Below are positions 1 through 28,927 of a stretch of 64,000 bases of DNA, piece by piece. The position numbers were made by a program, and so were the translations under genes. The notes beneath the pieces were generated by a model. That model made no database searches, was not told where the DNA came from, and worked only from the letters and a program-made list of their open reading frames with translations. The stretch's first letter is position 1, and each line of letters opens with the position of its first letter. The DNA is from Minisyncoccia bacterium (GTDB lineage Bacteria > Patescibacteriota > Minisyncoccia > Phycocordibacterales > SBAW01): NCBI GenBank assembly GCA_049997855.1, contig JBEKSG010000003.1:4154-68153 (forward strand), read 5' to 3'.

Positions 1-48
1 TCTCGATGACTAAATCATGTAGGCAGTATAGCACTTACCCGCGTGGCT

Positions 49-1023
49 TTATACGCTGGCTTTGCCGGTAGGTTTGTTGTCGAGGCTTCGGAGACCTGCC
101 ACGGTGAACTCGGCTTTAATCGACGGGTGCGGGTCATAGCCCACGAGCGTCACATGCTCGGGACGAAAGGTGGCGAGACTCGTCACTTCGTCGCTGATGA
201 CAATTTTTGGAAACGGTTTTGGCTCGCGCTCGAGTTGCTGCCGTATTGCTGTTTCATGGTCTTCATAATAGTGAACATCGCCAAAGGTATGCACAAAATC
301 TCCAGCTTCGCGCCCGACGATTTTGGCGATGATCATGCATAGCAGCGCATAGCTCGCGATGTTAAACGGCACACCAAGAAAGATGTCGGCGCTTCGCTGG
401 TAGAGCTGGAGCGACACTTTGCCGTGCTTGATGTTGAGCTGGTACATGTTGTGGCAAATAGGAAAATGGCTGACCTCCTTCGGCTTCGCCATCGAGTAGA
501 GATACTCCGGATTCCACGAGGTTACGATGGCGTTGTGGCACGAAGGGTCGCTTGTGAGCTCGTCGACGACCCACTGGAGTTGGTCGATCTGACGGCCGTC
601 TTTGGCGGGCCAGCGGCGCCACATCTCGCCGTAGATGCGCGGTAACTCGCCATACTCGCGCGCAAACTCGGCGTCGGTTTTTATTTTTTCGATAAACTCC
701 TCCTTGCTCATCTCGCTTACCTCGCCCGCTTTTGCAAGCTCGGCATACAGGCGGTATGGATAGTCGTCCCAAATGTGCACCTCGTTTTGCACCAGGTAGC
801 GGATGTTTGATTGCCCGGAGAGAAACCAAAACAGCTCGTGTAAGACGCCTTTCCAGTACACTTTTTTGGTGGTAAGCAAGGGGAAGCCTGCAGACAAATC
901 GAAACGCATCTGCCGTCCAAACACGCCGATGGTGGCTTTGCCGTGTCCGGCATCCACTTGCCTGTCTCCCTTGTCGAGAAGCTCCTGCATCAAATCGAGA
1001 TATTGTTTTTCGGGATGCGCCAT
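49..1023 (-). CDS. thyA: thymidylate synthase
   Basis: The 324 aa ORF shows the ThyA signature around the catalytic Cys (FPICHNMYQ) and the conserved C-terminal region; a CDS with 4 nt spacing to dcd. Confidence 0.88.
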   Translation of the reverse strand: MAHPEKQYLDLMQELLDKGDRQVDAGHGKATIGVFGRQMRFDLSAGFPLLTTKKVYWKGVLHELFWFLSGQSNIRYLVQNEVHIWDDYPYRLYAELAKAGEVSEMSKEEFIEKIKTDAEFAREYGELPRIYGEMWRRWPAKDGRQIDQLQWVVDELTSDPSCHNAIVTSWNPEYLYSMAKPKEVSHFPICHNMYQLNIKHGKVSLQLYQRSADIFLGVPFNIASYALLCMIIAKIVGREAGDFVHTFGDVHYYEDHETAIRQQLEREPKPFPKIVISDEVTSLATFRPEHVTLVGYDPHPSIKAEFTVAGLRSLDNKPTGKASV

Positions 1024-1024
1024 A

Positions 1025-1588
1025 TTATTTTTTTATTTTTTTAACCTTGGATTTAGCAGTAAAATTGTTTTTCCAATTGTCACCGACAAAACGCCCGGTC
1101 TCTTTGTAACTTTTGCGGGTAGGAGACGACAACCTCGAGAACGTAAGTTGGGCGATCTCCATGCCGGGGCGGAGAATAATGGGCACGTTGTTGAGATTGC
1201 ACAGCTCAAAGGTAATATGCAAAAAATGTCCGGGATTAATGAGCCCCGCCGTGTTGTGTATCATAAGCCCGATGCGCGCCAACGACGACTTCCCGCCTAC
1301 CTGAATGAGGAACTTGTCGGAGCCGAAATATTCTTTGGAGACGCCCAGCACCGACACGCCGGGGTGTAATACAAACACGCCGCCATCTTCGACGATAATC
1401 TCGTGGCTTTTGGCGTACACTTTTTTTACCGGGTCGATAAAAAGCGTATTGTTTTCGTCATTGACGACAAATTTATTGCCGAGCAAAATATCGTAGCTCG
1501 CGGGCTGGAGCCGCTCTTCGACAAACGGCTCGAGCGTGATCGAGCCTTTTTTAATTTCGGTAAGAATGTCTACATCGGATAAAAACAT
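1025..1588 (-). CDS. dcd: dCTP deaminase
   Basis: The 187 aa ORF carries Dcd/dUTPase-fold motifs (ASYDILLG, GLINPGHFLHIT) and lies next to thyA in a nucleotide-metabolism cluster. Confidence 0.82.
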   Translation of the reverse strand: MFLSDVDILTEIKKGSITLEPFVEERLQPASYDILLGNKFVVNDENNTLFIDPVKKVYAKSHEIIVEDGGVFVLHPGVSVLGVSKEYFGSDKFLIQVGGKSSLARIGLMIHNTAGLINPGHFLHITFELCNLNNVPIILRPGMEIAQLTFSRLSSPTRKSYKETGRFVGDNWKNNFTAKSKVKKIKK

Positions 1589-1642
1589 ATGATTTAGTCG
1601 AAATCATGTCGCGCAACGTCCATTGAAGCGCAACGCTTATAA

Positions 1643-2317
1643 TCAGCGAACAGTAAATACTTTGTCGGTACCGTAATACTCGCCCCAGTGCGCGTTGTAA
1701 AACGCAAACATTCTTTCCAATCGATCCTGCTGGAGCTCTTGCACGCCGCACTGCTCCATCAGCGCGCGCACTTCTTTGCGTGCGAGATCGAGTTCCCTCT
1801 CGTCTTTTACCACTCTTTCAAACTCGGCGAGCCAGCCATAGCCCGCGTTTTTGTCGAGCGTCACCGCAACACCTCGGCAAAGATACTCCTCGCGCTCGCG
1901 CGACCATTTGGCTTGATACACACATCCCGCATCGAGCAGCAGCTGGTCAAGCTCATCGAGCGAGAGCGATACCTCCTCCTCAAACTCCATCCGCGTGATG
2001 CCGTTCTGGCTCGTGGTGTTGTCGACCGATGCTTTGACGACCAAAAAAACTTTGCCGTCTTTGTCTCTGGTCCTAATCGAAAATTCTTTTCCTTTTTGTA
2101 AGATATCTTCGAGCTTTTTATATGTTTCGCCGGAAAAATACGGCTTCACCTGTTTGGCAATCAAAGAAGGAATACTGTTCATAAAATAGTGATTAAGCTG
2201 TTTGTTGCGAGCCGTGAGCACAGTGGCAGAGTCGACATGCTTCATCCGCTCGCGCAAAGTTTGAGCTGCCTCCTCGTTTCCCAAAAGCGACTTAACTTCT
2301 ACCTCAAAGGTTTGCAT
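1643..2317 (-). CDS. CYTH-domain (triphosphate tunnel metalloenzyme-like) protein
   Basis: N-terminal EVEVKSL, an internal IRTRD...GKVFLVVK stretch and later acidic motifs fit the CYTH/CyaB-ThTPase pattern; otherwise uncharacterised. Confidence 0.4.
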   Translation of the reverse strand: MQTFEVEVKSLLGNEEAAQTLRERMKHVDSATVLTARNKQLNHYFMNSIPSLIAKQVKPYFSGETYKKLEDILQKGKEFSIRTRDKDGKVFLVVKASVDNTTSQNGITRMEFEEEVSLSLDELDQLLLDAGCVYQAKWSREREEYLCRGVAVTLDKNAGYGWLAEFERVVKDERELDLARKEVRALMEQCGVQELQQDRLERMFAFYNAHWGEYYGTDKVFTVR

Positions 2318-2382
2318 AGTGCTATTTTAGCTCGGGACACCGCTCGCTTCCAGCTTTTGACGCAAGGGGTTAATATTACGCA

Positions 2383-2883
2383 ATGGTAAGCATCATTGCC
2401 GCAATAGGCCACAACCGCGCACTGGGTAAAAATAACGAGCTTTTGTGGCGCATCCCCGACGATCTTAAACGCTTCAAAGCATTGACGCTTGGCCACCCGG
2501 TTATCATGGGGCGCAAAACATTTGAGTCGTTGGGCAAGTCCTTGCCCGGGCGCACCAATATTGTGATTATGTATGCCGATGAATATCACGCGGACAATCT
2601 GCTTTATAATGTTGAAAACGTAATTGTCGCCTACTCGCTTGAGGAAGCAATCGAAAAAGCAAAGACATTGGATAACAAGGAGATTTTTATCGGCGGAGGC
2701 GCTCAAATTTATACACAGGCTTTGCCGCTGGCAGACCGTTTGTACCTAACATTGATTGATGACAAAAAAGAAGCTGATGTCTACTTCCCCGAATATGAGC
2801 GCTTGTTTACTAAAAAATTATCTGAAGAGCGCCGCGAATATAACGGGCTGAAGTATAAATGGATTGATCTGGAACGGGAGTAA
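2383..2883 (+). CDS. folA: dihydrofolate reductase
   Basis: The 166 aa ORF has the classic DHFR N-terminus (IIAAIGHNRALGKNNELLWRIPDDLKRFK) and a GGGAQIY motif. Confidence 0.9.
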   Translation: MVSIIAAIGHNRALGKNNELLWRIPDDLKRFKALTLGHPVIMGRKTFESLGKSLPGRTNIVIMYADEYHADNLLYNVENVIVAYSLEEAIEKAKTLDNKEIFIGGGAQIYTQALPLADRLYLTLIDDKKEADVYFPEYERLFTKKLSEERREYNGLKYKWIDLERE

Positions 2884-3624
2884 TCATTGTTTTCCTCCCT
2901 TCTTCCACTTCGTTTTTGTAAGAAATTGGGCGAATAAATCTTCTTTCAAGGGCACCACAAATTTATTCCATTTTCCCTTACTCTTCCGTTTGTGCCATAT
3001 CTTTTCTGCAACCCCGCGGATGACAACCAACGGCGTTTGTTCGCCACCCTCGCCCATTATTACTACTGCCGCAGCTGCCAAAGCATCCGCTACGTTTGCT
3101 TGCTCATATTGCAAAGGCCGTCCGAATACATCTTTGATTCCTCTATAATCCGAGAGAGGCTCAAACCCAGTCCACGCCAGCGCAAATCCAATTGCTCCAC
3201 GCCGCAGTGGCGTGCTTATCGAGTCGGTAATAATGACTCCTAAGCGAGACAGTTTATACTCTTGCATCAATTTTTTGCGCAACAAAGCTGCTGAACGTTG
3301 GGGGTTATGAGGCCAGAGAATATAGTGGCCGTTCCCGTTGCTTTCATCTATGCCTGCGGCACGGATAAGCACACCCTTGGTGATAGTAAAAGAAGATCCC
3401 CATTTTGGTTTTTCATTTAAATACAAAGAAGATTCCCGACGAGCGAGCGCTTCCTTTTTTATAGAACCTACACGCACACATCGGCCTTCATTGATACTTA
3501 CTACTTTAGAAGTAACAGCAATAATATCGCCATCTTTGGGCTTAAGAGACGAAGCAATAATTTTATGAACCAAATCGTCCTTTGGAGGCACTAAGACACC
3601 TATCTTTATTGGTTTGATATTCAC
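2884..3624 (-). CDS. CofE/FbiB-like gamma-glutamyl ligase family protein
   Basis: The 246 aa ORF matches the N-terminal pattern of F420-0:gamma-glutamyl ligase homologues (KDGDIIAVTSKVVSINEGR); it is embedded between folA and folB. Confidence 0.5.
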   Translation of the reverse strand: MNIKPIKIGVLVPPKDDLVHKIIASSLKPKDGDIIAVTSKVVSINEGRCVRVGSIKKEALARRESSLYLNEKPKWGSSFTITKGVLIRAAGIDESNGNGHYILWPHNPQRSAALLRKKLMQEYKLSRLGVIITDSISTPLRRGAIGFALAWTGFEPLSDYRGIKDVFGRPLQYEQANVADALAAAAVVIMGEGGEQTPLVVIRGVAEKIWHKRKSKGKWNKFVVPLKEDLFAQFLTKTKWKKGGKQ

Positions 3625-3637
3625 GAATGTATCTTAT

Positions 3638-4000
3638 CTAATTTTCTCTACTTCGAACAATAGTTACTCCCGGCACGCCGTTTTGCCACACTTCGGGTTT
3701 TTGGATTGTCACTTCAACTGTTTGTATGCGTTTGTCCTCCAGCACTTTGTGAGCAATTTCTTCGGCCAACGTTTCTATCAAAAACCTGCTGCTGCCTTTT
3801 ATCACCGCTCGGATTTTATCTTTTACTTCACTGTAATTTACTGTGTCAGCAAGATTGTCGCTTTGTGCCGCGTTGCTGGTGTCAACGCCAAGTTTGACCG
3901 ACAAGGCGAATTCCTGCTCAATGCGGCGCTCTTTTGCAAAACAGCCGTGCTTGCCGCGAAACACCAGGTTGTCGATGTGGATGTAATCCATGAGCCCCAT
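3638..4000 (-). CDS. folB: dihydroneopterin aldolase
   Basis: The 120 aa ORF has the FolB signature IHIDNLVFRGKHGCFAKERRIEQEF. Confidence 0.85.
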   Translation of the reverse strand: MGLMDYIHIDNLVFRGKHGCFAKERRIEQEFALSVKLGVDTSNAAQSDNLADTVNYSEVKDKIRAVIKGSSRFLIETLAEEIAHKVLEDKRIQTVEVTIQKPEVWQNGVPGVTIVRSREN

Positions 4001-4057
4001 ACTATACCAATAAAAAAGCCCGGGAATTACTCTAGAGGCCTTTTCTGCAATCCAAAT

Positions 4058-4480
4058 TTATGTAACGTCCACGCCCATGGAGCGGGCGCTGCCGGCTATT
4101 GTTTTCATCGCTTGCTCGAGGTCGTTGGCGTTGAGGTCAGGCATCTTGCGCTCGGCAATCTCCTTAACCTGCGCCTTAGTGAGGGTGCCAATCTTAGCCG
4201 TGTTAGGCTTGTCGCTCCCTTTTTCTTTACCCAAGGCCTTTAAAATGAGGCTCGATACCGGCGGAGTCTTGAGGACAAAGGTATAGGTACGGTCCTCGTA
4301 GACGCTGATTTCGGCAGGCACCATGTCGCCACGCATATTCTTAGAGGCATCGTTAAACTTTTTTACAAACTCGCCGATGTTGATGCCAGCGGGGCCAAGC
4401 ACTTGGCCCATGGCCGGCGTGAGCGTTGCCGCACCGCCTTGCGCGATGATCTTTATTTTTTTGACTATTTTCTTTGCCAT
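4058..4480 (-). CDS. rplK: 50S ribosomal protein L11
   Basis: The L11 motif is present and the start is placed at MAKKIVKK (internal Met of the table ORF). Confidence 0.9.
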   Translation of the reverse strand: MAKKIVKKIKIIAQGGAATLTPAMGQVLGPAGINIGEFVKKFNDASKNMRGDMVPAEISVYEDRTYTFVLKTPPVSSLILKALGKEKGSDKPNTAKIGTLTKAQVKEIAERKMPDLNANDLEQAMKTIAGSARSMGVDVT

Positions 4481-4605
4481 GTGATGCTTCATCACCCTGT
4501 CGAGGGTAGGTTTGGATATTACATTAATTTTATATTTTATGCCAGTTTTTTCTTTCTACCCCTCGCAAGGCCTCGGGGTCAAAGAATTTATAGTCGCTTT
4601 GCTCC

Positions 4606-5157
4606 TTAAATTCTTTTGACCTGCAAAAAGTCGAGCTCCACCGGCGTTTCGCGGCCAAACATCGCCACCAGCACCTTAACCTTGCCGCGGCTCTCGTCTA
4701 CCTCGCCCACTTTGCCGTCGAGATCCTTAAACGGGCCGTCGACAATGACTACCTGGTCGCCAACCGCCATATCAATGGCGTGTTTGACACTGCCCTCGGC
4801 CGCGTGCATGCGGCTCAAGAGCTCATCTACTTCCGATTGTTTAAGCGGCACCGGATTGACGCCGGAACCGACAAAGCCGGTGACGCGCGGCGTGTTGCGC
4901 ACGACAAACCACGACTGATCGTCAACGATCATGTCTACCAACACGTAGCCGGGGAATACCTTCTCTTCCTCCTCGACGCGGCGGCCGCCTTTGATTTTGA
5001 CCGTATGCTCGGTGGGCACGATAACGTTAAAGATTTTTTCTTGGAGGCCGAGGCTGTCGATGCGTTGTTTAAGATTGCGGGCAACGGCGTTTTCGTATCC
5101 GGCATAAGTGTGTATCGCATACCACGCGCGCCCGACCGATGTGTCTTGTTTGCTCAT
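4606..5157 (-). CDS. nusG: transcription termination/antitermination factor NusG
   Basis: NGN and KOW domains are present (WYAIHTYAGYEN; GDQVVIVDGPFKDLDGKV), in the conserved secE-nusG-rplK order. Confidence 0.9.
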   Translation of the reverse strand: MSKQDTSVGRAWYAIHTYAGYENAVARNLKQRIDSLGLQEKIFNVIVPTEHTVKIKGGRRVEEEEKVFPGYVLVDMIVDDQSWFVVRNTPRVTGFVGSGVNPVPLKQSEVDELLSRMHAAEGSVKHAIDMAVGDQVVIVDGPFKDLDGKVGEVDESRGKVKVLVAMFGRETPVELDFLQVKRI

Positions 5158-5258
5158 ATATACGAATGTTACGAATTATTACGAATACTACGAATTAAAC
5201 CAAATAAGTCCTAAATGAATGCTGCAAATTTATTCGATCTTACTTGTAGGATTCGTAG

Positions 5259-5429
5259 TTAAATAATGTATTTTACAACTGCGTCAAACACATAATCGAG
5301 GAGGCCGAGGTACACGGCGGTTGCGAGAGACACGGCAATTACCACGATGGTGTATACGATCGCCTGATTGCGCGTCGGCCAGGTAACGTGTCTCATCTCC
5401 GCGCGAACTTCCTTAAAATAGTTTGGCAT
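5259..5429 (-). CDS. secE: preprotein translocase subunit SecE
   Basis: Hand-translated 56 aa ORF (MPNYFKEVRAEMRHVTWPTRNQAIVYTIVVIAVSLATAVYLGLLDYVFDAVVKYII) matches SecE; it sits immediately upstream of nusG and is below the 60 aa cutoff of the ORF track. Confidence 0.7.
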   Translation of the reverse strand: MPNYFKEVRAEMRHVTWPTRNQAIVYTIVVIAVSLATAVYLGLLDYVFDAVVKYII

Positions 5430-5558
5430 AAAAATTTTGGCAATTTTAAAACCCCTCCCGGGGCCTGTTATAAACCAATCCTAGCGCCTTTTTTGTCTAG
5501 TGTCAATGCATCAAAAACGGGAACTATATATAATCACCCAATGTCGGACACGATGTGT

Positions 5559-5593
5559 AAAACGCCCTGCGCAAATCATTGCAAGGCGTTTTT
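5559..5593 (-). terminator. hairpin terminator after hypothetical gene 5592..5972
   Basis: A 12 bp near-perfect stem (aaaacgccctgc / gcaaggcgtttt) is followed by a U-run. Confidence 0.4.
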
Positions 5594-5972
5594 ATGCATT
5601 TTCCTTACGGACGTTATGGAAGTATGTTTGAAACTTCCTCCCATTTCTTTCAAAGAATAGTTCGACGCCGCAGATGACCGTTGAAGGGGTAGTAGCTGGA
5701 TCCCTATATATGGGTTGAAAGCCTACATTTTCCTTCGTGTCCATGATCATTGCCTGATATCGAGGTTTGCCAGCAAAGTTCTCATTGGTTATCACGACTC
5801 GCCACTTTTGCCACGAGCCTCCTTTGACCAAAGGCGGCATTGGACGCTCAAGAGTATAGACCTTACCCACGACAAGGTTTGGCAGGACCATGTCCCAGGA
5901 TTCTAGGAATGGTATCTTCATACAGTCTCCTTTCACCCGACTTAGCAGAGAGACAATAACAGCCTCCTCCAT
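5592..5972 (-). CDS. hypothetical protein
   Basis: The 126 aa ORF shows ordinary codon usage and is followed by a terminator hairpin; no recognisable family. Confidence 0.3.
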   Translation of the reverse strand: MEEAVIVSLLSRVKGDCMKIPFLESWDMVLPNLVVGKVYTLERPMPPLVKGGSWQKWRVVITNENFAGKPRYQAMIMDTKENVGFQPIYRDPATTPSTVICGVELFFERNGRKFQTYFHNVRKENA

Positions 5973-6016
5973 AACCTTAGAACATTGGCAGGAAAAAGCT
6001 ATTCCTGTTGTTTCAA

Positions 6017-6901
6017 CTATTTAATCTCGTAGGTGATGGTGACGTCGTCGGTCGTGGTGTTTTGGCCGGGCGAAATGACCGGAGCTGTTGCGGCATTGCC
6101 GCCGCTACCGGCCGCCATGGAGTACGCCACCGGCTGCGGGTAGCTGCCGCCCGCGTTTTCACTAAAGGAAACGACGCGCACCAATGTCACACCAAGCTGC
6201 TGAGCAAGCGCTTCGGCTTTGCTCTTGGCATCGGCAATTGCTTTGTTGCGCGCCTCGGTTTGCACGGCTGTTGGATCGTCAAAGGTAAAGGTGAGACCGG
6301 AAACTTCGGTAGCGCCTTTGGAGCCGACACCCGCAAGCAGGTCACCCGCTTTGCTGGTGTCGCGTACTTTAACTGTCGTGCTCTGGCTCACTTCGTAGCC
6401 GGTGAGCGTCTGCTTGCCGGGCGGACAATATACTATCGCGCCCGAGGAAGTGCCGGAGCCGGACGAGCCGCCGGAGTTTACAACCACATCGGGGGTCGGC
6501 GCGGTCGGCACTTGTCCACTCATTGGGCACGCCGCGTTTTGGTAGGTGTATTGTGGCTCTATGGAGTAGCCGCTCGTTTGTATGTCTTTGGTATCTACGC
6601 CTGCACCGGTGAGATAGGCGGTAATGGCGTTGGCCACGGCGGTGGCGTCGGCTTGCGCACCGGCAACGGTTGCTTCGTCGGAGACGACGCTAAAGCTAAA
6701 GGTGGCGATGTCGGGCACAGCCAGATCCTCGCCGTGGCCGGAGACGCTGATGGTGTTGGCGGCGGCAACGCCGGTGCCGATGTAGCGAAGCCCCACGAGT
6801 GCGCTCATGGTCTGTACCAGCAAAAACGCGGCGAGCAACACAACCGCCGAGATAATCCCCCAACGCAACCACACTCCTTCCCTTCCTTCAAATATATTCA
6901 T
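6017..6901 (-). CDS. SIMPL-domain (BP26/OMP28-like) membrane-anchored protein
   Basis: An N-terminal TM helix precedes a SIMPL/DUF541-like domain of repeated beta units ending ...DVTITYEIK. Confidence 0.65.
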   Translation of the reverse strand: MNIFEGREGVWLRWGIISAVVLLAAFLLVQTMSALVGLRYIGTGVAAANTISVSGHGEDLAVPDIATFSFSVVSDEATVAGAQADATAVANAITAYLTGAGVDTKDIQTSGYSIEPQYTYQNAACPMSGQVPTAPTPDVVVNSGGSSGSGTSSGAIVYCPPGKQTLTGYEVSQSTTVKVRDTSKAGDLLAGVGSKGATEVSGLTFTFDDPTAVQTEARNKAIADAKSKAEALAQQLGVTLVRVVSFSENAGGSYPQPVAYSMAAGSGGNAATAPVISPGQNTTTDDVTITYEIK

Positions 6902-6924
6902 AGTAACGAGTGTTAGTTAATAAT

Positions 6925-7644
6925 TTACTGACCTGCTTGTGCTTGAGCGATGACCGCCTGTATCTGCGCGAGCGGCAATGCGCCCGAAATCGGGTACTGC
7001 TTGCCGGTTTTGGTGTTGATGACAACCGTAAAAGGCGTGCCATTGCCGCCATTGCTCTCCGCATCGGCAGTCTCGGTTTGGATTTTGCCCAAGTAGGTGG
7101 AACTTGCGATGCATGAGTTGTACAAAGTCATGTTGGCGCCAAATTGCTTGGCAAGCGACGCCGAGTAACTTGCGCTCAAGCTCGACTGATTGTTAAACAC
7201 CGCATCGGCATACTCCCAAAAGCCGGTGTTGCCGAGCTGTGCCGCAATGCACTCGGCGGCGTTGGCGGCCGGCATGGCTTGCGGATGTATCTGGTACAGC
7301 GGAAACTCACGCATGACCCATGCTACTTGTCCGTTTGATTGGCTCACGATTTGCTTGAGTGAAGGATAGATCATCTGTCAGTACGGACATTGAAAGTCGG
7401 AGTACTCCACGAGCACGATAGGCGCGGAGGGCAAGCCTATGATGTGGTCGCTCACCGAGGGTGCGGGCACGTTGGCGCTTGTGGTAACACCTTGCGCGAC
7501 TGCCGCGGTAGCTCCCGTAGAAGGCGCCGGATGTTGGTTGGCAAAAATAATGGCTCCGGCAATGATGACACCCGCAATAATGATAGAGACCGACGGAGTG
7601 AGTTCAATCGAGGGGAGCGTGTGATGTTTTTGTTCTTCAGGCAT
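6925..7644 (-). pseudogene. DsbA/BdbD-like thiol:disulfide oxidoreductase interrupted by an in-frame TGA at the second Cys of the CPYC motif
   Basis: ORFs 7378..7644 and 6925..7374 are in the same frame. The reading is EYSDFQCPY-TGA-Q-MIYPSLKQ...; an N-terminal TM helix is followed by a thioredoxin fold. Confidence 0.7.
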
Positions 7645-7656
7645 ATAGGCAGTGTA

Positions 7657-8037
7657 TCACTTTTTGAGCAAATCGCGGATTTCGATCAGCAATTTTTCCT
7701 CCGGGCTTTGTTTGGGCGCCTCGGGCGGACCTTTAAAACGCGCCGTGAGTTTATTGACCGGTAATACGACAAAAAAATAAATAGTGACGGCTACGATAAA
7801 AAATGAAACGAGCGCGTTGATAAAATCGCCATAGAGAAACTGGCTGCCGTTAAGGGTAAAAACAAGCTTCGAAAAGTCGGGCTGCTTTACAAGCGCGGCG
7901 ATAAAGGGGGTCATAATATCTTTAACCAAGGAGGTAACCACCGCGGTAAAAGCGGCGCCGATCATAACGCCCACGGCTAAGTCGACAACGTTGCCGCGCA
8001 ATATAAAATCTCTAAATCCTTTTGTCACTTTTGTCAT
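7657..8037 (-). CDS. mscL: large-conductance mechanosensitive channel
   Basis: MscL signature (GNVVDLAVGVMIGAAF, two TM helices); the start is placed at MTKVTKGF. Confidence 0.85.
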   Translation of the reverse strand: MTKVTKGFRDFILRGNVVDLAVGVMIGAAFTAVVTSLVKDIMTPFIAALVKQPDFSKLVFTLNGSQFLYGDFINALVSFFIVAVTIYFFVVLPVNKLTARFKGPPEAPKQSPEEKLLIEIRDLLKK

Positions 8038-8106
8038 GTGCCGCCATTGTAACACTTTAAAGTGAGCGGTATAGTGCGGGCGGATAAAGTTCATGGGAGG
8101 CGCGCT

Positions 8107-8691
8107 ATGCGCGACGGTATGCGTTACGGCTTAGTGATTGGTATCACTTTTGTAACTGCCGTCGCCGAAATCATTGGCTCCGGCACAACAGACAGCAATA
8201 GTCTCCTTTCGGATGCGCTACATCTGTTGGGAGATGGCATCCCGTTTGTGTTGGGGTTTGCGCTCGGGATCGGCTTAATGCAGGATGAACAGACAAAAAG
8301 ATTCGTCGAGTGGATGATTACTTTGCTCAACACCATCTTTCTTGTCGGAGCCGCGCTTTACATAGGCTATCGCGGTATCTCTAGGCTTTATCATCCAGTT
8401 GGAATAGAGCCGGTCATGCTATGGTTTGCGCTCGCAGGGCTCGCGGGCAATACGGCACAACTGTGGTTCGCGCGGGGGCTCAAGCACGCACATAAACATG
8501 CCGGCACGTATCGTGGGTTGATGCTTCATCTTGCTGCCGACTTGATGGCAAGCATCTTCGTCGTATTAGCTGCGAGTGTGATTATGACAACCGGTTATGT
8601 GAGAGCCGACAGTATTGCTTCGCTGATCGTGGCGGCCATCACCGCTGGTGCGGCATGGCAATGCTACAAAGAACTCCGGTATGGTGAATGA
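8107..8691 (+). CDS. cation diffusion facilitator family transporter (short form)
   Basis: A CDF HxxxD motif (SDALHLLGD) and a second HLAAD motif in TM helices; the cytoplasmic C-terminal domain appears absent. Confidence 0.65.
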   Translation: MRDGMRYGLVIGITFVTAVAEIIGSGTTDSNSLLSDALHLLGDGIPFVLGFALGIGLMQDEQTKRFVEWMITLLNTIFLVGAALYIGYRGISRLYHPVGIEPVMLWFALAGLAGNTAQLWFARGLKHAHKHAGTYRGLMLHLAADLMASIFVVLAASVIMTTGYVRADSIASLIVAAITAGAAWQCYKELRYGE

Positions 8692-8699
8692 AATGCCAA

Positions 8700-8728
8700 G
8701 CGCGGCCCTCAAAGGGCCGCGCTTTTTT
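8700..8728 (+). terminator. rho-independent terminator
   Basis: gcgcggccc-tcaaa-gggccgcgc followed by TTTTTT. Confidence 0.7.
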
Positions 8729-8745
8729 CTTTATCTATTTTTTCT

Positions 8746-9087
8746 CTACGCGCTCATGTCGGCGTTGATGCTGTTGACCGACGATTGGATGGCTTCTGTA
8801 GTCCATACATAGGCAAGCCATATCGTGATAAGTGTTGAGGCTGTCAAAATAATAATAGCGATGGTGCCGATAGACTTTGCCTTTGGGTCGCTCGATTTGT
8901 AGTACGTTATACCCGGCCACTTGGATACCATGATAAAAAGAATCATGGGGAGGATGGCGCTAAAAGCGTATATCCACGCTTGCGTTTCGAAAGAGGTGGA
9001 GAGCGGCGCCGACGTGAGCTTGGTACCGCAGTTGGGGCAAAAATAATAGCTCGGCAATACCGGCTGATGACAATACGGACATATCAT
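8746..9087 (-). CDS. zinc-ribbon membrane protein
   Basis: N-terminal CPYC...CPNC zinc ribbon followed by TM helices. Confidence 0.4.
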   Translation of the reverse strand: MICPYCHQPVLPSYYFCPNCGTKLTSAPLSTSFETQAWIYAFSAILPMILFIMVSKWPGITYYKSSDPKAKSIGTIAIIILTASTLITIWLAYVWTTEAIQSSVNSINADMSA

Positions 9088-9090
9088 ATT

Positions 9091-9471
9091 CTAGACAAAT
9101 CCGAAGTACAGTAAAACCACACCAACAATAAAAGCAACGATGCCGCCAAATAGGAGCACACCGTCTTTATTGCACTTCCGGTACAGCGCGATTGCAGGGC
9201 CGGGAAAAAGGAGAAGAAAAGCTCCTTTTATGAGAGTCAGCCAACCGAGGATCGTAATGAGCAACGCAAGGCCGGACGTCCAAGAATTGTTCATCACAAC
9301 GATCACGGCACCCATGGACAAAATAAGAAAGCCCCACAACCACAGAAACCCACGATCCTGACCTATCTTGTCGAGAGCAACTGACACATTCTTTCTATCG
9401 AAAATTACCGATAAACCCATTATTGCGAGAACTAACCCCAATACTTGAGCGATAGCGATTGAAGCATTCAT
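9091..9471 (-). CDS. hypothetical membrane protein
   Basis: Four predicted TM helices; the start is placed at MNASIAIAQ. Confidence 0.35.
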   Translation of the reverse strand: MNASIAIAQVLGLVLAIMGLSVIFDRKNVSVALDKIGQDRGFLWLWGFLILSMGAVIVVMNNSWTSGLALLITILGWLTLIKGAFLLLFPGPAIALYRKCNKDGVLLFGGIVAFIVGVVLLYFGFV

Positions 9472-9783
9472 GCTGTTAACATTATTAATGATAATCAAAC
9501 AGATTCGACCTCTCGCTATTATTATAACCCCGCGATTGAGTTTCATCACAACACTCACTTCAGCGGTGATATAATGCAGCGCATGATTAAGCGTCTTCCG
9601 CTCTCCGTGTATGCCGTCGGTGTCCTCGTCGCGTGGGCGATTGTTCTGTTTGTCGTGTCGCAATTTAGCCCAACAAACTTCGAGACAGCCATCGTTCTCT
9701 GCACCGGTTTCTTTCTGGGTGTGCTGTATATGTATCTCCGTATACGCGTATCACACCTCGATAAGTGAGGAGCCGAAAAAACG

Positions 9784-9857
9784 GGGTGCCTACTGGGAAT
9801 CGAACCCAGATTGCGAGTTCCACAAACTCGAGTGTTGACCTTTACACCATAGGCACC
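9784..9857 (-). tRNA. tRNA-His (anticodon GTG)
   Basis: Hand-folded cloverleaf with anticodon loop TTGTGGA, T-loop GGTTCGATTCC and no encoded CCA. Confidence 0.8.
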
Positions 9858-9932
9858 ATGTGCGCGCCAAAAAAATCTAGCGCTAGGCTCTATATATATC
9901 TTTTTTAAGGTTAAAAGTCGAGACCGGTTTAT

Positions 9933-10979
9933 TTACGGGTGGAAGAAAAACGCGACTGCAATGATGGCGTACGCGGCGAGGAGTTGCACGCCCTCAAACC
10001 AGTTGCTCTCACCGTCTTCGGCAACGGCGTTGACGATAAACACCGAGAGGATGATAGCCGCAAGCTCGAACGTGTTAAACACGAGCGCCATGTGCTCGGT
10101 AAACAAGAGGCTCGCGAGCACCAAGACGGGCGCGGCAAACATAGCTATCTGGATGGCCGACCCTATAGACACTTGGAGTGCGAGATCCATGCGGTTTTTG
10201 AGCGCAACCGTTATTGCCGATACGTGCTCGGCAGCGTTGCCGATGATAGCGATAAAAATAACACCGATAAACAACTCGCTCCATCCCCACGCTGCCACTA
10301 ACGGCTCGATGGCGCCAACCAATAACTCACTCATGTATGCAACGGTGATCGTTGATACAAAAAGTATCACAATGCTTTCGGTAACGCTCCATCGTGGCTC
10401 ATATTTGGTAACCTCCTCTTCGTACAAATGTTTATGTGTGTGGAGCGTAAACCAAAGGTTGGCAACATACGCCGCTATCATAATAATGGCAACAATGATC
10501 GAAAGTTGCTCGACAATAGCCGGCGAAACGGCGTTGGACGATTGCAAAAAGATGGCCGGCATCACGAGCGCGATAATTGCAAGGAGGAGTGTCGAGCCGG
10601 CTGCCTTGGCGGCTGTTGCGTTAAACGTTTGCTTGTTCTTTCTCCACCCGCCAAAAAGGATTGCCGTGCCGAGCACCAAGAGTAAGTTGCCCACAATGGA
10701 GCCGGTGATAGACGCTTTAACCACCTCGATGAGTCCCGCGCGCAAAGCAAAGATGCCGATAATGAGCTCGGTCGCGTTGCCAAATGTTGCGTTTAAGAGT
10801 CCGCCGAGTGCGGGATTGGTGCGGCCAGCAAGTTCTTCGGTTGCCTCGCCGATATATTTGGCGAGCGGCACGATGGCAAGCGCCGAGAGAAAAAACACCG
10901 CTTGTGGCGCAACTCCCGCATAGTAGGCCAGCACGGTTACTGGCACAAACACGAGTAGACCCAAAAAAAGTTTGTCCAT
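9933..10979 (-). CDS. Ca2+/H+ antiporter (CaCA family)
   Basis: 348 aa with about 10 TM helices and two alpha-repeat signatures (GNATELIIGIFALRAG; GNAAEHVSAITVALKN). Confidence 0.85.
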   Translation of the reverse strand: MDKLFLGLLVFVPVTVLAYYAGVAPQAVFFLSALAIVPLAKYIGEATEELAGRTNPALGGLLNATFGNATELIIGIFALRAGLIEVVKASITGSIVGNLLLVLGTAILFGGWRKNKQTFNATAAKAAGSTLLLAIIALVMPAIFLQSSNAVSPAIVEQLSIIVAIIMIAAYVANLWFTLHTHKHLYEEEVTKYEPRWSVTESIVILFVSTITVAYMSELLVGAIEPLVAAWGWSELFIGVIFIAIIGNAAEHVSAITVALKNRMDLALQVSIGSAIQIAMFAAPVLVLASLLFTEHMALVFNTFELAAIILSVFIVNAVAEDGESNWFEGVQLLAAYAIIAVAFFFHP

Positions 10980-11003
10980 ATATATGCCTAGCTTATCAAG
11001 CTA

Positions 11004-11312
11004 TTGTACAATACAAAGGTCATGCAATACTTCCATCAAGCAACTTATGGTAATGCGGGCAGCGTGCACACGCGACAGCCGCAGATGGTCATGCAAGGCA
11101 ACGCCGTATACAACACGCGCTATAACCCCGCCGGCGCCTCGGCGCATCCGGTGTATATGGTGCACGGCGGTCAGATGTATCGCACCGCGTTTCATCCGGA
11201 GGGAAAAAGTGAGCATCCGCTCTATGAAATCCGCGGCGACAAAGTGCACACCACGGTGTTCCACCCCGAACACAATCCAAGCCAGCATGTGTTTGAGCTG
11301 CGTTCAAAATAA
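11004..11312 (+). CDS. small His/Pro-rich repeat protein
   Basis: 102 aa with about three 22-aa repeats of the pattern S-x-HP-x-Y...FHPE; unknown family. Confidence 0.35.
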   Translation: MYNTKVMQYFHQATYGNAGSVHTRQPQMVMQGNAVYNTRYNPAGASAHPVYMVHGGQMYRTAFHPEGKSEHPLYEIRGDKVHTTVFHPEHNPSQHVFELRSK

Positions 11313-11457
11313 AAAATTGTATTTGGTCACAAATAACTTTTTGCCGTCGCAAAAAGTTTTTGCGACCCCGACTCGCGGTTCCGCTTGCTAGCGGAACATC
11401 GCTCCGTCCCACAAAAAGCAGAAAAACCCGCTCAAGCGGGATGTTTCTGTCTTTTTG

Positions 11458-11539
11458 TGCCCGGGAGAGGACTTGAACCTCCATGCCTTGCGGCACATCC
11501 ACCTCAAGGATGCTTGTATACCAATTTCAACACCCGGGC
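11458..11539 (-). tRNA. tRNA-Leu (anticodon GAG)
   Basis: Hand-folded cloverleaf with a long variable arm and anticodon loop TTGAGGT. Confidence 0.8.
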
Positions 11540-11548
11540 AGGTATTTA

Positions 11549-12037
11549 TTATGCCTCAGACTTTTCGGTTTGAGGAGCGTCTGAAACTTCTGCTTCAACA
11601 ATCGGAGCTACCTCATCGTCAATAACGGCAACACGCGGAGCGACGGCTTGCTGGCGGCGCATTGCGCGCTTAACCTCGCTCGTGGCTTTTTCGCGGATAA
11701 AATAAAGCTTGGCGCGGCGCGTGCGGCTGCGGCGCAAAACTTCTATGGAGTCTATCATCGGCGAATAGAGCGGGAAAATTTTTTCGACTCCTACGCCCGA
11801 AGAAACTTTGCGGACGGTAAACATCGCGCCCGGCTCGGTGCCGTGCTTGACCGCCAATACCAAGCCCTCAAAAGCTTGTTTGCGGATGTTTTTGGTCGTG
11901 ACCATTTTTTTGTTGGCGCCCTTGCCCGTTTTTAGCTCCTCAATTTTTTGCCAGACGCGCACGGTATCGCCCGAGCGGAGACGCAGGCTTGCGCGTTCCT
12001 TTATATCAACAGGAGTGTGTTTTACGCCGGATTTCAT
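11549..12037 (-). CDS. rplS: 50S ribosomal protein L19
   Basis: L19 core (RSGDTVRV...FTVRK...GVEKIFPLYSP) with an acidic C-terminal extension. Confidence 0.85.
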   Translation of the reverse strand: MKSGVKHTPVDIKERASLRLRSGDTVRVWQKIEELKTGKGANKKMVTTKNIRKQAFEGLVLAVKHGTEPGAMFTVRKVSSGVGVEKIFPLYSPMIDSIEVLRRSRTRRAKLYFIREKATSEVKRAMRRQQAVAPRVAVIDDEVAPIVEAEVSDAPQTEKSEA

Positions 12038-12049
12038 TGCTCAAAGACT

Positions 12050-12805
12050 TTAACATATAAGGACAAACAGTGCAAAACTCTCTTTTTTTCTTAATGCAAT
12101 GTTAGCCGAAAGTAGTTTCTCAGCCCGTATAAAATCCTCCGGCAAGGGCGCCTCAAACTTCATCTTCTTGCCGTTAGGATGGGTAAAAACGATAGAGAAT
12201 GCGTGCAGTGCCAGCCGCTCGAAACCTAAAATTTTAGGGCGGCTCAGCGCGTAGAGTTGGTCGGCAACAATAGGATGCTGCACCGCGCTCAAGTGCACGC
12301 GTATCTGGTGCGTGCGCCCGGTTTTTGGGAACACCTCTATCTCAGTAGCAAGAGTAGCTCTTGCTACGACGCGATAGGCCGTGGTAGCCTCGCGCACGGT
12401 GCCATGCGGCAGCTTTGCCGAGCGCGGCCCGCGGCCACCACGGCTGCTGCCTATCGGTTTGTCGATGACTCCCCTGTCTTTGGTAATCGAGCCGTATACA
12501 AACGCGCGATAGGTTTTTTGTATCTCGTGCTCGGCAAATTGCTTTTTTAAAAACTCATATGCGGCCTCGGTCCGCGCCACCACCAATACGCCTGATGTTT
12601 CTCGGTCGATGCGATGCACAAAATGAAAGCCTGCCTGCGCAGGCAGGTTGCCTACACCATATTTTTTTTCAAGCCAATAACTCAAAGCCGGGTACTCATG
12701 CTTGCCGTCGGGATATACAATCATCCCAGCCGGTTTGTTGATGATCAGTATCTCGGCATCTTCATACATAATTTTAGGCTCCTGCATATTTATATATTCT
12801 CCCAT
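12050..12805 (-). CDS. RluA-family pseudouridine synthase
   Basis: Catalytic motif HRIDRETSGVLVVA; no S4 domain. Confidence 0.8.
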   Translation of the reverse strand: MGEYINMQEPKIMYEDAEILIINKPAGMIVYPDGKHEYPALSYWLEKKYGVGNLPAQAGFHFVHRIDRETSGVLVVARTEAAYEFLKKQFAEHEIQKTYRAFVYGSITKDRGVIDKPIGSSRGGRGPRSAKLPHGTVREATTAYRVVARATLATEIEVFPKTGRTHQIRVHLSAVQHPIVADQLYALSRPKILGFERLALHAFSIVFTHPNGKKMKFEAPLPEDFIRAEKLLSANIALRKKESFALFVLIC

Positions 12806-13002
12806 TCGTTACTTGAAATACCGGCTTGACGTAAAATCTCTGACAGTAAAGAGGATGAGATATCATTGTGATGTGGATTGGGAATATGGATTTTAAGAGT
12901 ATCGCGAACCATAAAAAGATGCCGACCTCCCGAGTAGGGGCCGTCAAAACCGAGCCGTCTAAACTTTTGAACTAGTTTTCGCCAAGAGATGCTCCTAGCC
13001 AT
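12790..13002 (-). CDS. hicA: HicA toxin (mRNA interferase)
   Basis: 70 aa with a HicA/YcfA pattern (WRKLVQKFRRLGF...IPNPHHNDI...LLSEILRQAGIS). Confidence 0.75.
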   Translation of the reverse strand: MARSISWRKLVQKFRRLGFDGPYSGGRHLFMVRDTLKIHIPNPHHNDISSSLLSEILRQAGISSNEWENI

Positions 13003-13240
13003 TCTTAACCAACGAGCGACGATCGGTCTTTATTTGAAAGCCGGGGACCACTTCTCTGCTCTGCACTTTGAGAAGGAGCCAATCCTCAAGCACTTCACGG
13101 AGTTCAACCCGACAAGCAACCAAAGTGCGCGCATTGGCCCACACGCCGCGCACGCCGGAAATCTCACCAAAATAGCTACCGTCTTTGAGGCGCTTATAGC
13201 GAGCTTGTTTGAGTTTTTTGGAGAGAAATTCGGTCAACAT
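12995..13240 (-). CDS. hicB: HicB-like antitoxin
   Basis: 81 aa ORF overlapping the hicA start by 8 nt, with a HicB-like EVLEDWL motif. Confidence 0.6.
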   Translation of the reverse strand: MLTEFLSKKLKQARYKRLKDGSYFGEISGVRGVWANARTLVACRVELREVLEDWLLLKVQSREVVPGFQIKTDRRSLVKNG

Positions 13241-13288
13241 GATGTAGCCATCATAACAAAAAAGGTCCGCGCAGGCAACGACACAGAC

Positions 13289-13702
13289 CTAGTCAAGCTG
13301 TTTTATCAAGTCAACAACTTTTTCTTTTATTAAATCACGTATATTTGCATGAAAGAGCGCGCCAGTGCCGCCAGCGTCCGAAACATCCCAAAGTTCAAGT
13401 TTTGGTGAGCGAAGTAAATAATCGGGGAGCTCCTCCTTGGCGTTTAAAGCAATCACCTTATCTGCTTTTGCGACCAGTGCGGGCGTGAGTTTATTTCTCA
13501 ATTTTTTTCTTACATCAATCCCCACATCGTCCATTGCCGCAATTACTTTTTCTGTAACGTTTGATATGGGTTGATTTTCCTCCTCTAGCTCAACATGCGT
13601 GCCTGCGCTAAAGGCTTCGTGCTATGGCGCAAGATCAGCCAAAAACGCCTCCGCCATTTGGCTACGTCCGACATTTGCTTTACAGATAAATAAAACTTTC
13701 AT
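13289..13702 (-). pseudogene. low-molecular-weight protein-tyrosine-phosphatase / ArsC-family protein interrupted by an in-frame TAG
   Basis: Hand translation gives MKVLFICKANVGRSQMAEAFLADLAP-TAG-HEAFSAGTH..., which runs in frame into ORF 13289..13534. The CX5R(S) P-loop is intact. Confidence 0.6.
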
Positions 13703-13703
13703 G

Positions 13704-13776
13704 TGCACGCTGCAGGACTCGAACCTGCGACCATCCCGGTGTAAACGGGGCGCTCTACCAACTGAGCTAAGCGTGC
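13704..13776 (-). tRNA. tRNA-Val (anticodon TAC)
   Basis: Hand-folded cloverleaf with anticodon loop TTTACAC and T-loop GGTTCGAGTCC. Confidence 0.8.
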
Positions 13777-13857
13777 AACGCGCACTTTAATGCACGCCTT
13801 TATTTATACCCGTTTTTGAATGATTGTCACTGCATGCGAGCCAGAGGCGAAACCTCC

Positions 13858-15996
13858 TTACCACCCCCAATACCACCCCCAAGAGGAAGAAGCCTTAACC
13901 ACGACCCTTACCCACTGTGAAGATGGCAACCATCTGGCTGTGGGATATTGATTTGTTCTAGTAACCGGGAGGAAGTAGTACGTCCCGGCAGTTGTAGGTG
14001 TAAAGGTAAAGTTGAGCGGATTCTGCACGGCGGTGCCTACATCCGAGCCGGTTTCCAAACCGATGATTTCAGCGGCAGGAGAAGGAGGAATTTCGTTGAT
14101 GGAGTCCATGAGGAGCTGGTCGCCCGTGCCGGGAGTAAATGTTGCGTGGATGGTAGTCGATTGGCCGGTGTACAGGGTAGTTGCACCTGCCGAGATGGTC
14201 ATCGTGGGCGGAGCTGCCGGAGTAGTCGGGGTCGGAAACACCTTGGGCGAGCCAACGAGAAGCGTCATAACTGTCGGATCGCTTAGGTCTATGCCATAGG
14301 CATAGAGCGTGTGCGAAGCGGTCAGATACGATGCCGGCAATTGATACACGAATCCGTGATTGCCCGTGACATGCATGACACTATCCACATCAGGCCGTGA
14401 GGTGTTGGCAGGGATTGTGGCAACCAGTGTCCCGACACCCTTCGGGCCATCCGCATAGATGGCGACATTGACGGACGTGGAGGATGCATTGGGATCAAGC
14501 GACCATCCCGAGAGGACTCCTGCACTGCTTACAGAGTCAAAAAAACCGATAGGGGGGATGTTGTTCGGTGCAACGACGCTTACTGTAACTTGAGCGGTAT
14601 TGGAACCTTGTGCATTGGATGCAGTGAGGGTGTAAGTCGTCGTCTGCGACGGAGTAACTTGCACCGAAGTGCCGGTTACCGCGCCGATGCCGGATATGGA
14701 GAGCGACGTCGCTCCCGAAACAGACCATGAGAGCGTGATGCTTTGACCTTGGGTGACCGATGCGGGCGTTGAAACGAATGATGAGACGGTGGGAAGTGGA
14801 GGTGCGAGATTGGCAGAGCAATTAATACTTGGCAGGGTAACTCCCTTCCATGCCGCAACCGCTTGTTGCACGGCAGCCATCGGACCGCAGCCGAGCGCGA
14901 CAGACGGCTCGAGATCGTTGGAGAAGTTTGTCGTGTCTTGGTCGGAATGGATCCACTCGTTAAACTGGGTCAGGATGATGATTTCCGGATTATAGCTTAT
15001 GGCGGTGCTCCATTGCTTGTTGAAGGTAACCGCATAGTTGGAGGCCGTGCTCGAAGCATTTGTCGTGCCGTCGCGGCCTGCCAGCGTTGGGACACCGTCA
15101 TAGGTAGCAGGACAGCCAGCAGTAGTCCATCCGCAACCCGGATACGCTTGAGTCACGGTTATCGCCTCGACGCTGCCACTGCTATTGGAAGGCCGCGGAT
15201 TGCGGTCTTCCCAGCTCCAAATATCGCTGTTGCCCAAACCTTTTAGATACGGCTGTTCAAAAACCGACACGAACCTCACGGTAAAGCGCGAATCGTTCCA
15301 TGCCGGATTGATGACGCTTCCTTTAGCAGTAGGAATCCCGGTATACACAAGGAGCAGCGGTTTGCCGTTGAGTGAATAATAGATGTTGGGATATTGCGTG
15401 TACATCTGGTATGCGTAATCCGCTTCATTTTGGAGAATTGACTCACCGTTTAATTGGGGGAATTTCGTATTGATGACTTGGCTTTGGGTTATGCTGCCTT
15501 CGTCTTGCGCTGCCAGTGTTATCGCGATTCTCGGATACGGCTTGCCCTCATTTAAGAGGTTTTGATACTCGGTGAACAGAACGCTGGTATTTGTGCGCGA
15601 AATAGTTTCGGGCGATGTATTGCCCGCAACATAATTTGCAGCGCTATTGGTCCAGTCAAGGATGACGAAGTTTACGCCAAGATCGTTCAGCCATTCCGCA
15701 TGCTTGTCGATAATAGCCGTATTGGTCGAGGTGTAATCGCCGAGAAGCGGCGTGCTCCATGTGCCCCAATTAGGGTCAGTCCATAGGTTACCATTGCCTA
15801 GTGACGGGAACCATATTTCGTACTCCATCGCGATGCACTTTGATGTGCAGTTTGGCGTTACCGCGGAGAGTGCCACTGCCGCGCTCTGAGAAGCATTATT
15901 ACGTACATAAAATACACCGAACGCGGCGACTGCCAAGACAATCACAACAACTATTAAAAGCAACCATGTGTTGCGTCCCCATGTAAATTTCTTCAT
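13858..15996 (-). CDS. secreted multidomain protein with glycoside-hydrolase-like TIM-barrel region and Ig-like domains
   Basis: 712 aa with a signal anchor, an N-terminal region suggestive of a glycosyl hydrolase (DLGVNFVILDWTNS..., EW...QFNEW) and C-terminal beta-sandwich repeats. Confidence 0.4.
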   Translation of the reverse strand: MKKFTWGRNTWLLLIVVVIVLAVAAFGVFYVRNNASQSAAVALSAVTPNCTSKCIAMEYEIWFPSLGNGNLWTDPNWGTWSTPLLGDYTSTNTAIIDKHAEWLNDLGVNFVILDWTNSAANYVAGNTSPETISRTNTSVLFTEYQNLLNEGKPYPRIAITLAAQDEGSITQSQVINTKFPQLNGESILQNEADYAYQMYTQYPNIYYSLNGKPLLLVYTGIPTAKGSVINPAWNDSRFTVRFVSVFEQPYLKGLGNSDIWSWEDRNPRPSNSSGSVEAITVTQAYPGCGWTTAGCPATYDGVPTLAGRDGTTNASSTASNYAVTFNKQWSTAISYNPEIIILTQFNEWIHSDQDTTNFSNDLEPSVALGCGPMAAVQQAVAAWKGVTLPSINCSANLAPPLPTVSSFVSTPASVTQGQSITLSWSVSGATSLSISGIGAVTGTSVQVTPSQTTTYTLTASNAQGSNTAQVTVSVVAPNNIPPIGFFDSVSSAGVLSGWSLDPNASSTSVNVAIYADGPKGVGTLVATIPANTSRPDVDSVMHVTGNHGFVYQLPASYLTASHTLYAYGIDLSDPTVMTLLVGSPKVFPTPTTPAAPPTMTISAGATTLYTGQSTTIHATFTPGTGDQLLMDSINEIPPSPAAEIIGLETGSDVGTAVQNPLNFTFTPTTAGTYYFLPVTRTNQYPTARWLPSSQWVRVVVKASSSWGWYWGW

Positions 15997-16060
15997 GTCT
16001 TTAGTATAACATGCCTAAAAAGCATAGGGGGAGTATACGCCTCCTCAAGCGGCTCATTGG

Positions 16061-16132
16061 TGCCCCCGCGAGGAATCGAACCTCGAATAGCGGCTTAGAA
16101 GTCCGCAGTTATATCCATTTAACTACAGGGGC
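16061..16132 (-). tRNA. tRNA-Arg (anticodon TCT)
   Basis: Hand-folded with anticodon loop CTTCTAA. Confidence 0.75.
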
Positions 16133-16194
16133 GTAGGTGCTATGGGTGCCAAACACTGGCACAATACCATAGTACCGCTATTATTACGTGACAT

Positions 16195-16689
16195 ATGTTT
16201 TTGCGCGAATCGTATTGGCACGAACTTTTTGAAACGGGCGTTTTGCTCAAGGCTTTTAACAGCGCGTGGGAAATTACGGGCGGTTTTCTCCTCCTGGCCA
16301 ACGTGCGCGGCTGGTTCCCCCACTTGTTTGTGTTGCTCACGCGCGCAGTGTTTTTGGGCGGCCACGGCGGCTTGGTGCTCAATATTGTTAATGCTCATGT
16401 GCACAACCTCGCACCCGGCACGCAGCTTTTTGTCGCCGCTTACTTGCTCTTCCACGGCATGATGAATCTCTTTCTTTCTTACAACTTATACAAAAACCAT
16501 CTATGGGCATATTCTTTTACCGCGGTGTTTACGAGCACGTTCCTTATATATCAGGTGTATCGTCTCGCACATACCCACTCGCTGGTGCTCTTTATCGTAA
16601 GCATCCTCGACTTTATCTTTATCATCCTCACCTGGCACGAGTACAAACATCAACTCGCTAAAGCAACACGCCATGCATCTCACGCTTGA
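16195..16689 (+). CDS. DUF2127-like membrane protein
   Basis: 164 aa polytopic membrane protein with several predicted TM helices. Confidence 0.35.
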   Translation: MFLRESYWHELFETGVLLKAFNSAWEITGGFLLLANVRGWFPHLFVLLTRAVFLGGHGGLVLNIVNAHVHNLAPGTQLFVAAYLLFHGMMNLFLSYNLYKNHLWAYSFTAVFTSTFLIYQVYRLAHTHSLVLFIVSILDFIFIILTWHEYKHQLAKATRHASHA

Positions 16690-28926: not shown

Positions 28927-28927
28927 A

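Follow-up and report, generated by a model that had tools for sequence, protein, structure and literature searches.

The window, by which we mean the whole 64,000-nt stretch of DNA analysed here, carries on its minus strand a gene of the DsbA family with an in-frame stop codon. Two minus-strand ORFs, 7378..7644 (88 aa) and 6925..7374 (149 aa, starting with MIYPSLKQIV), lie in the same frame, and nothing separates them except the TGA at 7378..7380 and one CAG codon. Joined over 6925..7644 they read ...LVEYSDFQCPY-TGA-QMIYPSLK, with the TGA at the second Cys of CPYC, exactly as a preliminary description made from the sequence alone had reported. The ORF pair is not a chance juxtaposition but one gene that is interrupted by one stop codon. 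The following features were assigned to the gene.

6925..7644, minus strand: complete DsbA-family gene of 239 codons plus stop, broken at codon 89; identified by translation, by the Pfam matches Thioredoxin_4 and DSBA, and by 100% identity to an intact 239-aa protein (P0124) except at codon 89.

7378..7380, minus strand: in-frame TGA at the resolving Cys, C89, of CPYC; the sole mismatch to the sister assemblies in the 720-nt gene and in the 64,000 nt.

7378: variant base, T on the plus strand of the window and G in the sister assemblies, corresponding to TGA versus TGC on the coding strand.

7387..7389, minus strand: intact TGT codon of the first, nucleophilic active-site Cys, C86.

7378..7644, minus strand: N-terminal fragment of 88 aa, NCBI entry MGC9602365.1, 'hypothetical protein', locus tag ABSE76_01300.

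7540..7596, minus strand: single N-terminal transmembrane anchor, residues 17-35, PSVSIIIAGVIIAGAIIFA, predicted from the top Kyte-Doolittle 19-residue window (2.42).

6925..7374, minus strand: C-terminal ORF of 149 aa, NCBI entry MGC9602364.1, 'thioredoxin domain-containing protein', with an internal Met start two codons past the TGA.

7033..7038, minus strand: Thr203-Pro204, corresponding to the conserved Thr-Pro ('cis-Pro') loop located opposite the active site of DsbA-type enzymes.

7111..7251, minus strand: second invariant Cys pair, C132 (7249..7251) and C178 (7111..7113), located in the helical insert.

The 88-aa fragment comprises a predicted cytoplasmic tip and transmembrane anchor, a linker rich in Ala, Ser and Thr, the first beta strands and the residues C-P-Y. 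In the AlphaFold model of an 89%-identical orthologue, the anchor region is predicted as a helix spanning residues 17-37. The 149-aa ORF has neither the anchor nor a CxxC motif. The two NCBI entries stem from a MAG of Minisyncoccia (Paceibacterota/CPR), in which they are encoded on a contig of 98,843 bp.

The neighboring genes encode MscL (7657..8094, minus strand), a SIMPL/DUF541 protein (6017..6901, minus strand) and a cation-efflux protein (8062..8691, plus strand). The MscL gene ends in TGA (7657..7659), and the ATG of the dsbA gene (7642..7644) lies 12 nt downstream in the same frame (...KK-TGA-YTAY-MPEEQ). This shared frame is most likely a coincidence, for which the chance is 1 in 3. 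On the plus strand, a 302-aa ORF (6008..6916) runs antisense to the SIMPL gene and is nearly co-extensive with it; it is a shadow ORF in a G+C-rich gene and not a gene itself. A tblastn search of the window yielded no paralogue of the dsbA gene, and thus no local back-up copy is present.

The gene was compared with other assemblies of the same genome. P0124, a 239-aa protein with Cys at position 89 and otherwise identical to the window product, is encoded in the metagenome assemblies JGI 3300037843 (contig Ga0427918_0000070, 258,149 bp) and Logan SRR12951267 (contig SRR12951267_1908), and the 88-aa fragment clusters with it. At the DNA level, the 720-nt gene of the window and that of the sister assemblies differ in one base, TGA versus TGC. 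The sister contigs from both sources cover positions 1..64000 of the window fully and are 100.000% identical to it except at base 7378. The same clonal genome therefore has an intact CPYC gene in two other assemblies. This bears out the earlier proposal that a single-base change had produced the TGA and, since both sister assemblies read TGC, points to a one-base mutation or an assembly error and not to a selenoprotein. Protein look-ups revealed no other contig that encodes the 88-aa or the 149-aa split product, which is mild evidence that the TGA allele does not occur in other assemblies. Exact scans of the metagenome_contigs and genome_contigs collections for the 41-mer around the codon, with the variant base set to N, gave no match; as these scans missed even the JGI contig, they carry no weight for or against the allele.

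For the assignment of the protein family, profile searches were performed with the 239-aa product in which Cys was put at the position of the stop. The Cys-restored product matched Thioredoxin_4 (PF13462; E 2.4e-22, 80.3 bits, cutoff 23.2) and DSBA (PF01323; E 5.7e-14, 52.8 bits, cutoff 25.6), the latter over profile positions 2-190 of 191. A homologue search returned more than 500 sequences, and the nearest full-length ones (about 230-245 aa, at most 89% identical) stem from MAGs of Paceibacterota, Minisyncoccia and Patescibacteria. The 239-aa product aligned with the full-length orthologues from end to end and with no frameshift. The AlphaFold (AF2) model of the 89%-identical orthologue P0001 (pLDDT 87.7) consists of an anchor helix and, after a disordered linker, a thioredoxin fold into which a helical domain is inserted. 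When this model was used as a Foldseek query, DsbA structures were matched with E values between 1e-11 and 1e-8. The top PDB matches were Wolbachia alpha-DsbA1 (E 1.2e-11), Salmonella BcfH, C. diphtheriae TsdA/DsbA and P. aeruginosa DsbA2, with B. subtilis BdbD further down. By sequence, the closest solved relative was DsbA2 (4N30, E 2.3e-11 in a phmmer search against PDB sequences). The Pfam, phmmer and Foldseek results agree with the DsbA/BdbD-like assignment of the preliminary description.

The window protein shares the thioredoxin fold with helical insert, the C-P-x-C motif and the Thr-Pro loop with Wolbachia alpha-DsbA1 (3F4R), P. aeruginosa DsbA2 (4N30), B. subtilis BdbD (3EU3) and C. 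diphtheriae TsdA/DsbA (7UNN, 4PWO), although its identity to the solved DsbA structures is only 18-25%. For Thr203-Pro204, the family suggests a cis conformation. The second conserved Cys pair, C132/C178, aligns with that of alpha-DsbA1 in the phmmer alignment, and in PDB entry 3F4T this second pair of alpha-DsbA1 is mutated (C97A/C146A). C132 and C178 probably form a structural disulfide. As in several of the DsbA relatives, the window protein is predicted to be extracytoplasmic and N-terminally tethered. By analogy with these relatives, the wild-type product would be an ordinary membrane-anchored extracytoplasmic DsbA-type thiol:disulfide oxidoreductase with an N-terminal anchor and a flexible linker. 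Its active site would be formed by C86-P-Y-C89, together with the Thr-Pro loop and the second Cys pair. The profile match, the thioredoxin fold with an inserted helical domain and the Thr-Pro loop, all features of the DsbA family, are present. The intact CxxC is found in the sister assemblies (CPYC), whereas the window assembly reads C-P-Y-stop and, in contrast to the DsbA relatives, has TGA as the codon of the resolving Cys; a VKOR or DsbB partner was not identified in the window. The gene thus belongs to the DsbA family, but its product as written in the window assembly would not be a functional member.

The preliminary description had proposed a comparison of the affected codon among orthologues. 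C86, C89, C132, C178 and Thr203-Pro204 were invariant in 64 aligned full-length orthologues, and in this alignment the TGA takes the exact place of C89, the second Cys of C-P-[YF]-C. For the analysis of codons, 80 GTDB loci were retrieved with seeds that excluded the second Cys. These 80 species-level genomes provided 83 instances of the motif, in which the second Cys was encoded by TGC (52 instances) or TGT (31 instances) and in no instance by TGA. The proposal that the TGA is a nonsense mutation or a sequencing error is in line with both comparisons, as the two assemblies of the same genome carry TGC and every orthologue examined carries TGT or TGC.

Because the in-frame UGA lies exactly on the column of a redox-active Cys, the gene had also been proposed to encode a CxxU selenoprotein, in which UGA would be decoded as Sec by SelB and tRNA-Sec with the help of a SECIS hairpin just downstream. 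DsbA-like and DsbG-like selenoproteins do exist, and the best NCBIfam match of the window protein was indeed a '(seleno)lipoprotein' family (NF041057, Rcas_1661/DsbG-like (seleno)lipoprotein; E 1.8e-22). However, the score of 80.1 bits is below the cutoff of 190, and the window protein is therefore not a member of this family. The RNA downstream of the UGA, where a SECIS would have to be placed, was folded and compared with dinucleotide-shuffled sequences. The 69 nt from the UGA gave -6.5 kcal/mol compared with a mean of -11.1 kcal/mol for the shuffles (z = +1.89), and 198 of the 200 shuffles folded at least as well. For the 46-nt stretch from the UGA, a z value of +0.96 was obtained. Only 4-bp helices were predicted downstream of the UGA, no better than in shuffled sequence, which confirms the earlier impression that only a weak hairpin and no convincing SECIS is present. 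A permissive Rfam scan of positions 7200..7500 (E <= 10) gave no relevant match. Since nearly all shuffled versions of this RNA fold at least as well as the RNA itself, we conclude that no SECIS is present.

The machinery for Sec incorporation was likewise absent from the window. ARAGORN detected eight ordinary tRNAs in the 64 kb, with neither a tRNA-Sec nor a UCA anticodon among them, and the Rfam search of the window added only tRNAs and a LOOT RNA. No SelA, SelB or SelD domain was found among the genes called on the sister contigs and the remaining ORFs scanned in the window. Among the papers of the library searched, none reported Sec use in Patescibacteria or Parcubacteria, which is a weak negative. 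The sole Parcubacteria paper found deals with Cys-tRNA synthesis by SepRS/SepCysS and not with UGA recoding (PMC5424206).

The position of the UGA within the motif also differs from that in related selenoproteins. Like the window protein, the DsbA-like selenoproteins (PF01323, form 1) and the DsbG-like ones (NF041057) combine a DsbA-type thioredoxin fold with an in-frame UGA inside the redox motif. However, they are UxxC proteins, in which Sec replaces the first, nucleophilic Cys (PMC1088965, Table 3; review table in PMC13188914) and a SECIS follows the UGA, whereas the window gene has its UGA at the second Cys, the fourth position of the motif, and no SECIS. The CxxU motif belongs to the SelW-like, AhpD-like and CMD families (PMC1088965, Table 3; review table in PMC13188914). 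These share the position of the UGA within a CxxC-type motif with the window gene, but they are unrelated families, none of which was matched by the window protein in Pfam or NCBIfam, and they depend on a SECIS and on the Sec machinery, neither of which was found in the window. The earlier statement that thioredoxin-fold proteins with CxxU are known in bacteria is thus true in general, as the SelW-like and AhpD-like proteins illustrate, but it does not apply to the DsbA family. An alternation between Cys and Sec in otherwise identical genomes would need a SECIS that already exists in the Cys allele. None is there, and the Sec reading is accordingly unsupported. The window gene is a member of no selenoprotein family, as the tests for a SECIS, for conservation of the codon and for the family cutoff all failed. 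Together with the TGC codon of the two sister assemblies, whose downstream sequence is otherwise identical, and with the use of TGA as a normal terminator described below, these results exclude selenocysteine, leaving it a vanishingly small probability at most. A Sec at this site, which the evidence rules out, would have made the protein the first DsbA of the CxxU type and would have pointed to Sec use in CPR bacteria.

Some CPR lineages have reassigned UGA. A sense reading of UGA in the window genome, as Gly (code 25, Gracilibacteria/Absconditabacteria), as Trp (code 4) or by a dedicated suppressor tRNA, was considered on this ground, and the dsbA gene is otherwise perfectly intact. The stop codons of the 63 complete genes called on the sister contigs were TAA (38 genes), TAG (14 genes) and TGA (11 genes), and none of the genes contained an internal stop. 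Because TGA ends 11 of the 63 genes, it is an ordinary terminator in this genome, and the reassignment of UGA was rejected. The window genome shares with the code-25 lineages that it belongs to the CPR and has an in-frame UGA, but it differs in using TGA as terminator, in having no other in-frame TGA and in its lineage (Minisyncoccia/Paceibacterota). None of the eight window tRNAs has a UCA anticodon, and the sister assemblies carry TGC. Moreover, even if Gly or Trp took the place of the invariant catalytic Cys, the enzyme would be inactive. An altered code is thus of negligible probability.

With a probability of about 95%, the locus is best explained as a normal gene for DsbA with one C-to-A difference that is confined to this MAG and would be a nonsense allele of very recent origin or else an error in the consensus or base calling. 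The change from TGC to TGA on the coding strand (G to T on the plus strand at 7378) would cause the ribosome to stop at this codon. The product would be an 88-aa membrane stub with the lone Cys86, accompanied at most by a 149-aa cytoplasmic fragment re-initiated at the ATG two codons downstream. The latter would miss the anchor, the first strands, the start of the helix and the CxxC motif. Neither the stub nor the fragment would be expected to act as an oxidoreductase. About 3.8% of random substitutions in the genes of this genome create stops, and 5.7% of C>A changes do so; one such event is thus unremarkable for a mutation and for an error. The dsbA gene shows zero further differences from the sister copy and no other sign of decay. 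This fits a very recent mutation and an artefact alike, which makes the gene at most a candidate pseudogene in the evolutionary sense.

On the sequence alone, the two forms of this explanation stand at roughly 50:50. If the allele were real, TGA would be dominant in the sampled population and the strain would just have lost its membrane-anchored DsbA. Bases are seldom invented by assemblers, and the MAG contig (98,843 bp) was assembled independently of those from JGI (258 kb) and Logan (15-41 kb). Selection would not yet have filtered new mutations in a population that is otherwise uniform over 64 kb. However, two other assemblies of the same population read C at this position, and neither the 88-aa nor the 149-aa product is encoded on any further contig on record. 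In addition, C89 is invariant in every orthologue examined, so its loss should be strongly counter-selected. On balance, the probability of a real allele falls slightly short of one half. The same weight is given to an assembly or sequencing artefact, in which the organism would have TGC and the A would be a consensus error or a low-frequency damaged-base call that was fixed by the assembler. The variant is the sole difference in 64,000 bases from two other assemblies, and the lack of the split products in any other assembly on record would be explained as well. G>T changes are typical of oxidative (8-oxoG) library damage, and the plus-strand change from G to T is of this class. Positions that create stops make up 4-9% of random errors and are rarer among surviving natural variants. 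On the other hand, consensus errors are rare where coverage is good, and the local context has no homopolymer or repeat that would favor an error.

If the allele is real, the stop could also be leaky. A C directly after UGA is regarded as weakening termination, and UGA is a near-cognate codon for tRNA-Cys. In the window, C directly follows the stop (TGA-C), and read-through by a near-cognate tRNA (Cys, Trp or Arg) would yield a small amount of full-length, partly functional DsbA. Since such read-through presupposes a real allele, and no stimulatory structure and no conservation of the TGA in orthologues were found, the chance of a leaky stop is very slim. There is also a small outside chance of a more consequential event, namely that the TGA is genuine and dominant and that the membrane-anchored DsbA has only just been lost from a Minisyncoccia population that is otherwise clonal, either adaptively or with buffering by near-cognate Cys read-through of UGA-C. 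If the loss were adaptive, surface or pilus proteins that need disulfides, for example, could no longer serve as targets for phages or for host contact. Phase variation and diversity-generating retroelements were considered separately and rejected, as the site lacks repeats and homopolymers and the difference is confined to one base.

The gene itself is an ordinary representative of the DsbA family, in which a premature stop or a base error would be nothing new. A defect of one base that two further assemblies of this genome lack carries little biological weight. It does call for caution with the annotation, as two separate CDSs are entered in the public record for this one gene, one named 'hypothetical protein' (88 aa) and the other 'thioredoxin domain-containing protein' (149 aa). 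Selenoprotein screens would also flag exactly such a pattern, with a TGA in frame at a catalytic Cys. Here, the question of Sec was settled without reads, by comparison of independent assemblies of the same population.

Several further features were observed elsewhere in the window. A possible mobile island extends over 21015..29962. Two tRNA-Arg genes (gcg, 21026..21098; ccg, 29889..29961) bracket about 8.8 kb of lower G+C content (0.45-0.48), and the 85-nt stretches that include them and their flanks are 75% similar. The gene for a large serine recombinase (21086..22777, minus strand; Resolvase, Recombinase and Zn_ribbon_recom domains) overlaps the first tRNA-Arg gene by 13 nt. The island further holds an HTH_36 protein, several ORFs without domains and the LOOT RNA motif (RF03000), which gave a full-length Rfam match at 24669..24786 on the plus strand (68.5 bits, gathering score 46.4). 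The 3' end of the LOOT RNA overlaps the ATG (24770) of a 407-aa ORF without a Pfam domain. The island is possibly an integrated mobile element.

The region 49417..57227 is the neighborhood of the chromosomal replication origin and contains jag/R3H, yidC, rnpA, dnaA (52833..54176, minus strand) and dnaN (51524..52621, minus strand). A gene for an AIPR (abortive-infection-type) protein of about 693-699 aa (49417..51516, minus strand) directly adjoins dnaN. Beside the origin region, a cluster resembling type IV secretion and conjugation systems starts at 57224 and extends to 64000 and beyond; it encodes a T4SS pilin (57224..58249), a TraG/VirB4-like P-loop ATPase (59820..61679), and TraC-like and PrgI-like proteins. 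A PemK/MazF-type toxin gene (37627..38007, minus strand) is preceded by a small ORF (77 aa in the JGI gene calls) that presumably encodes the antitoxin, and the two are located between the gene for DNA polymerase I and that for a large Big_7/PG_binding surface protein.
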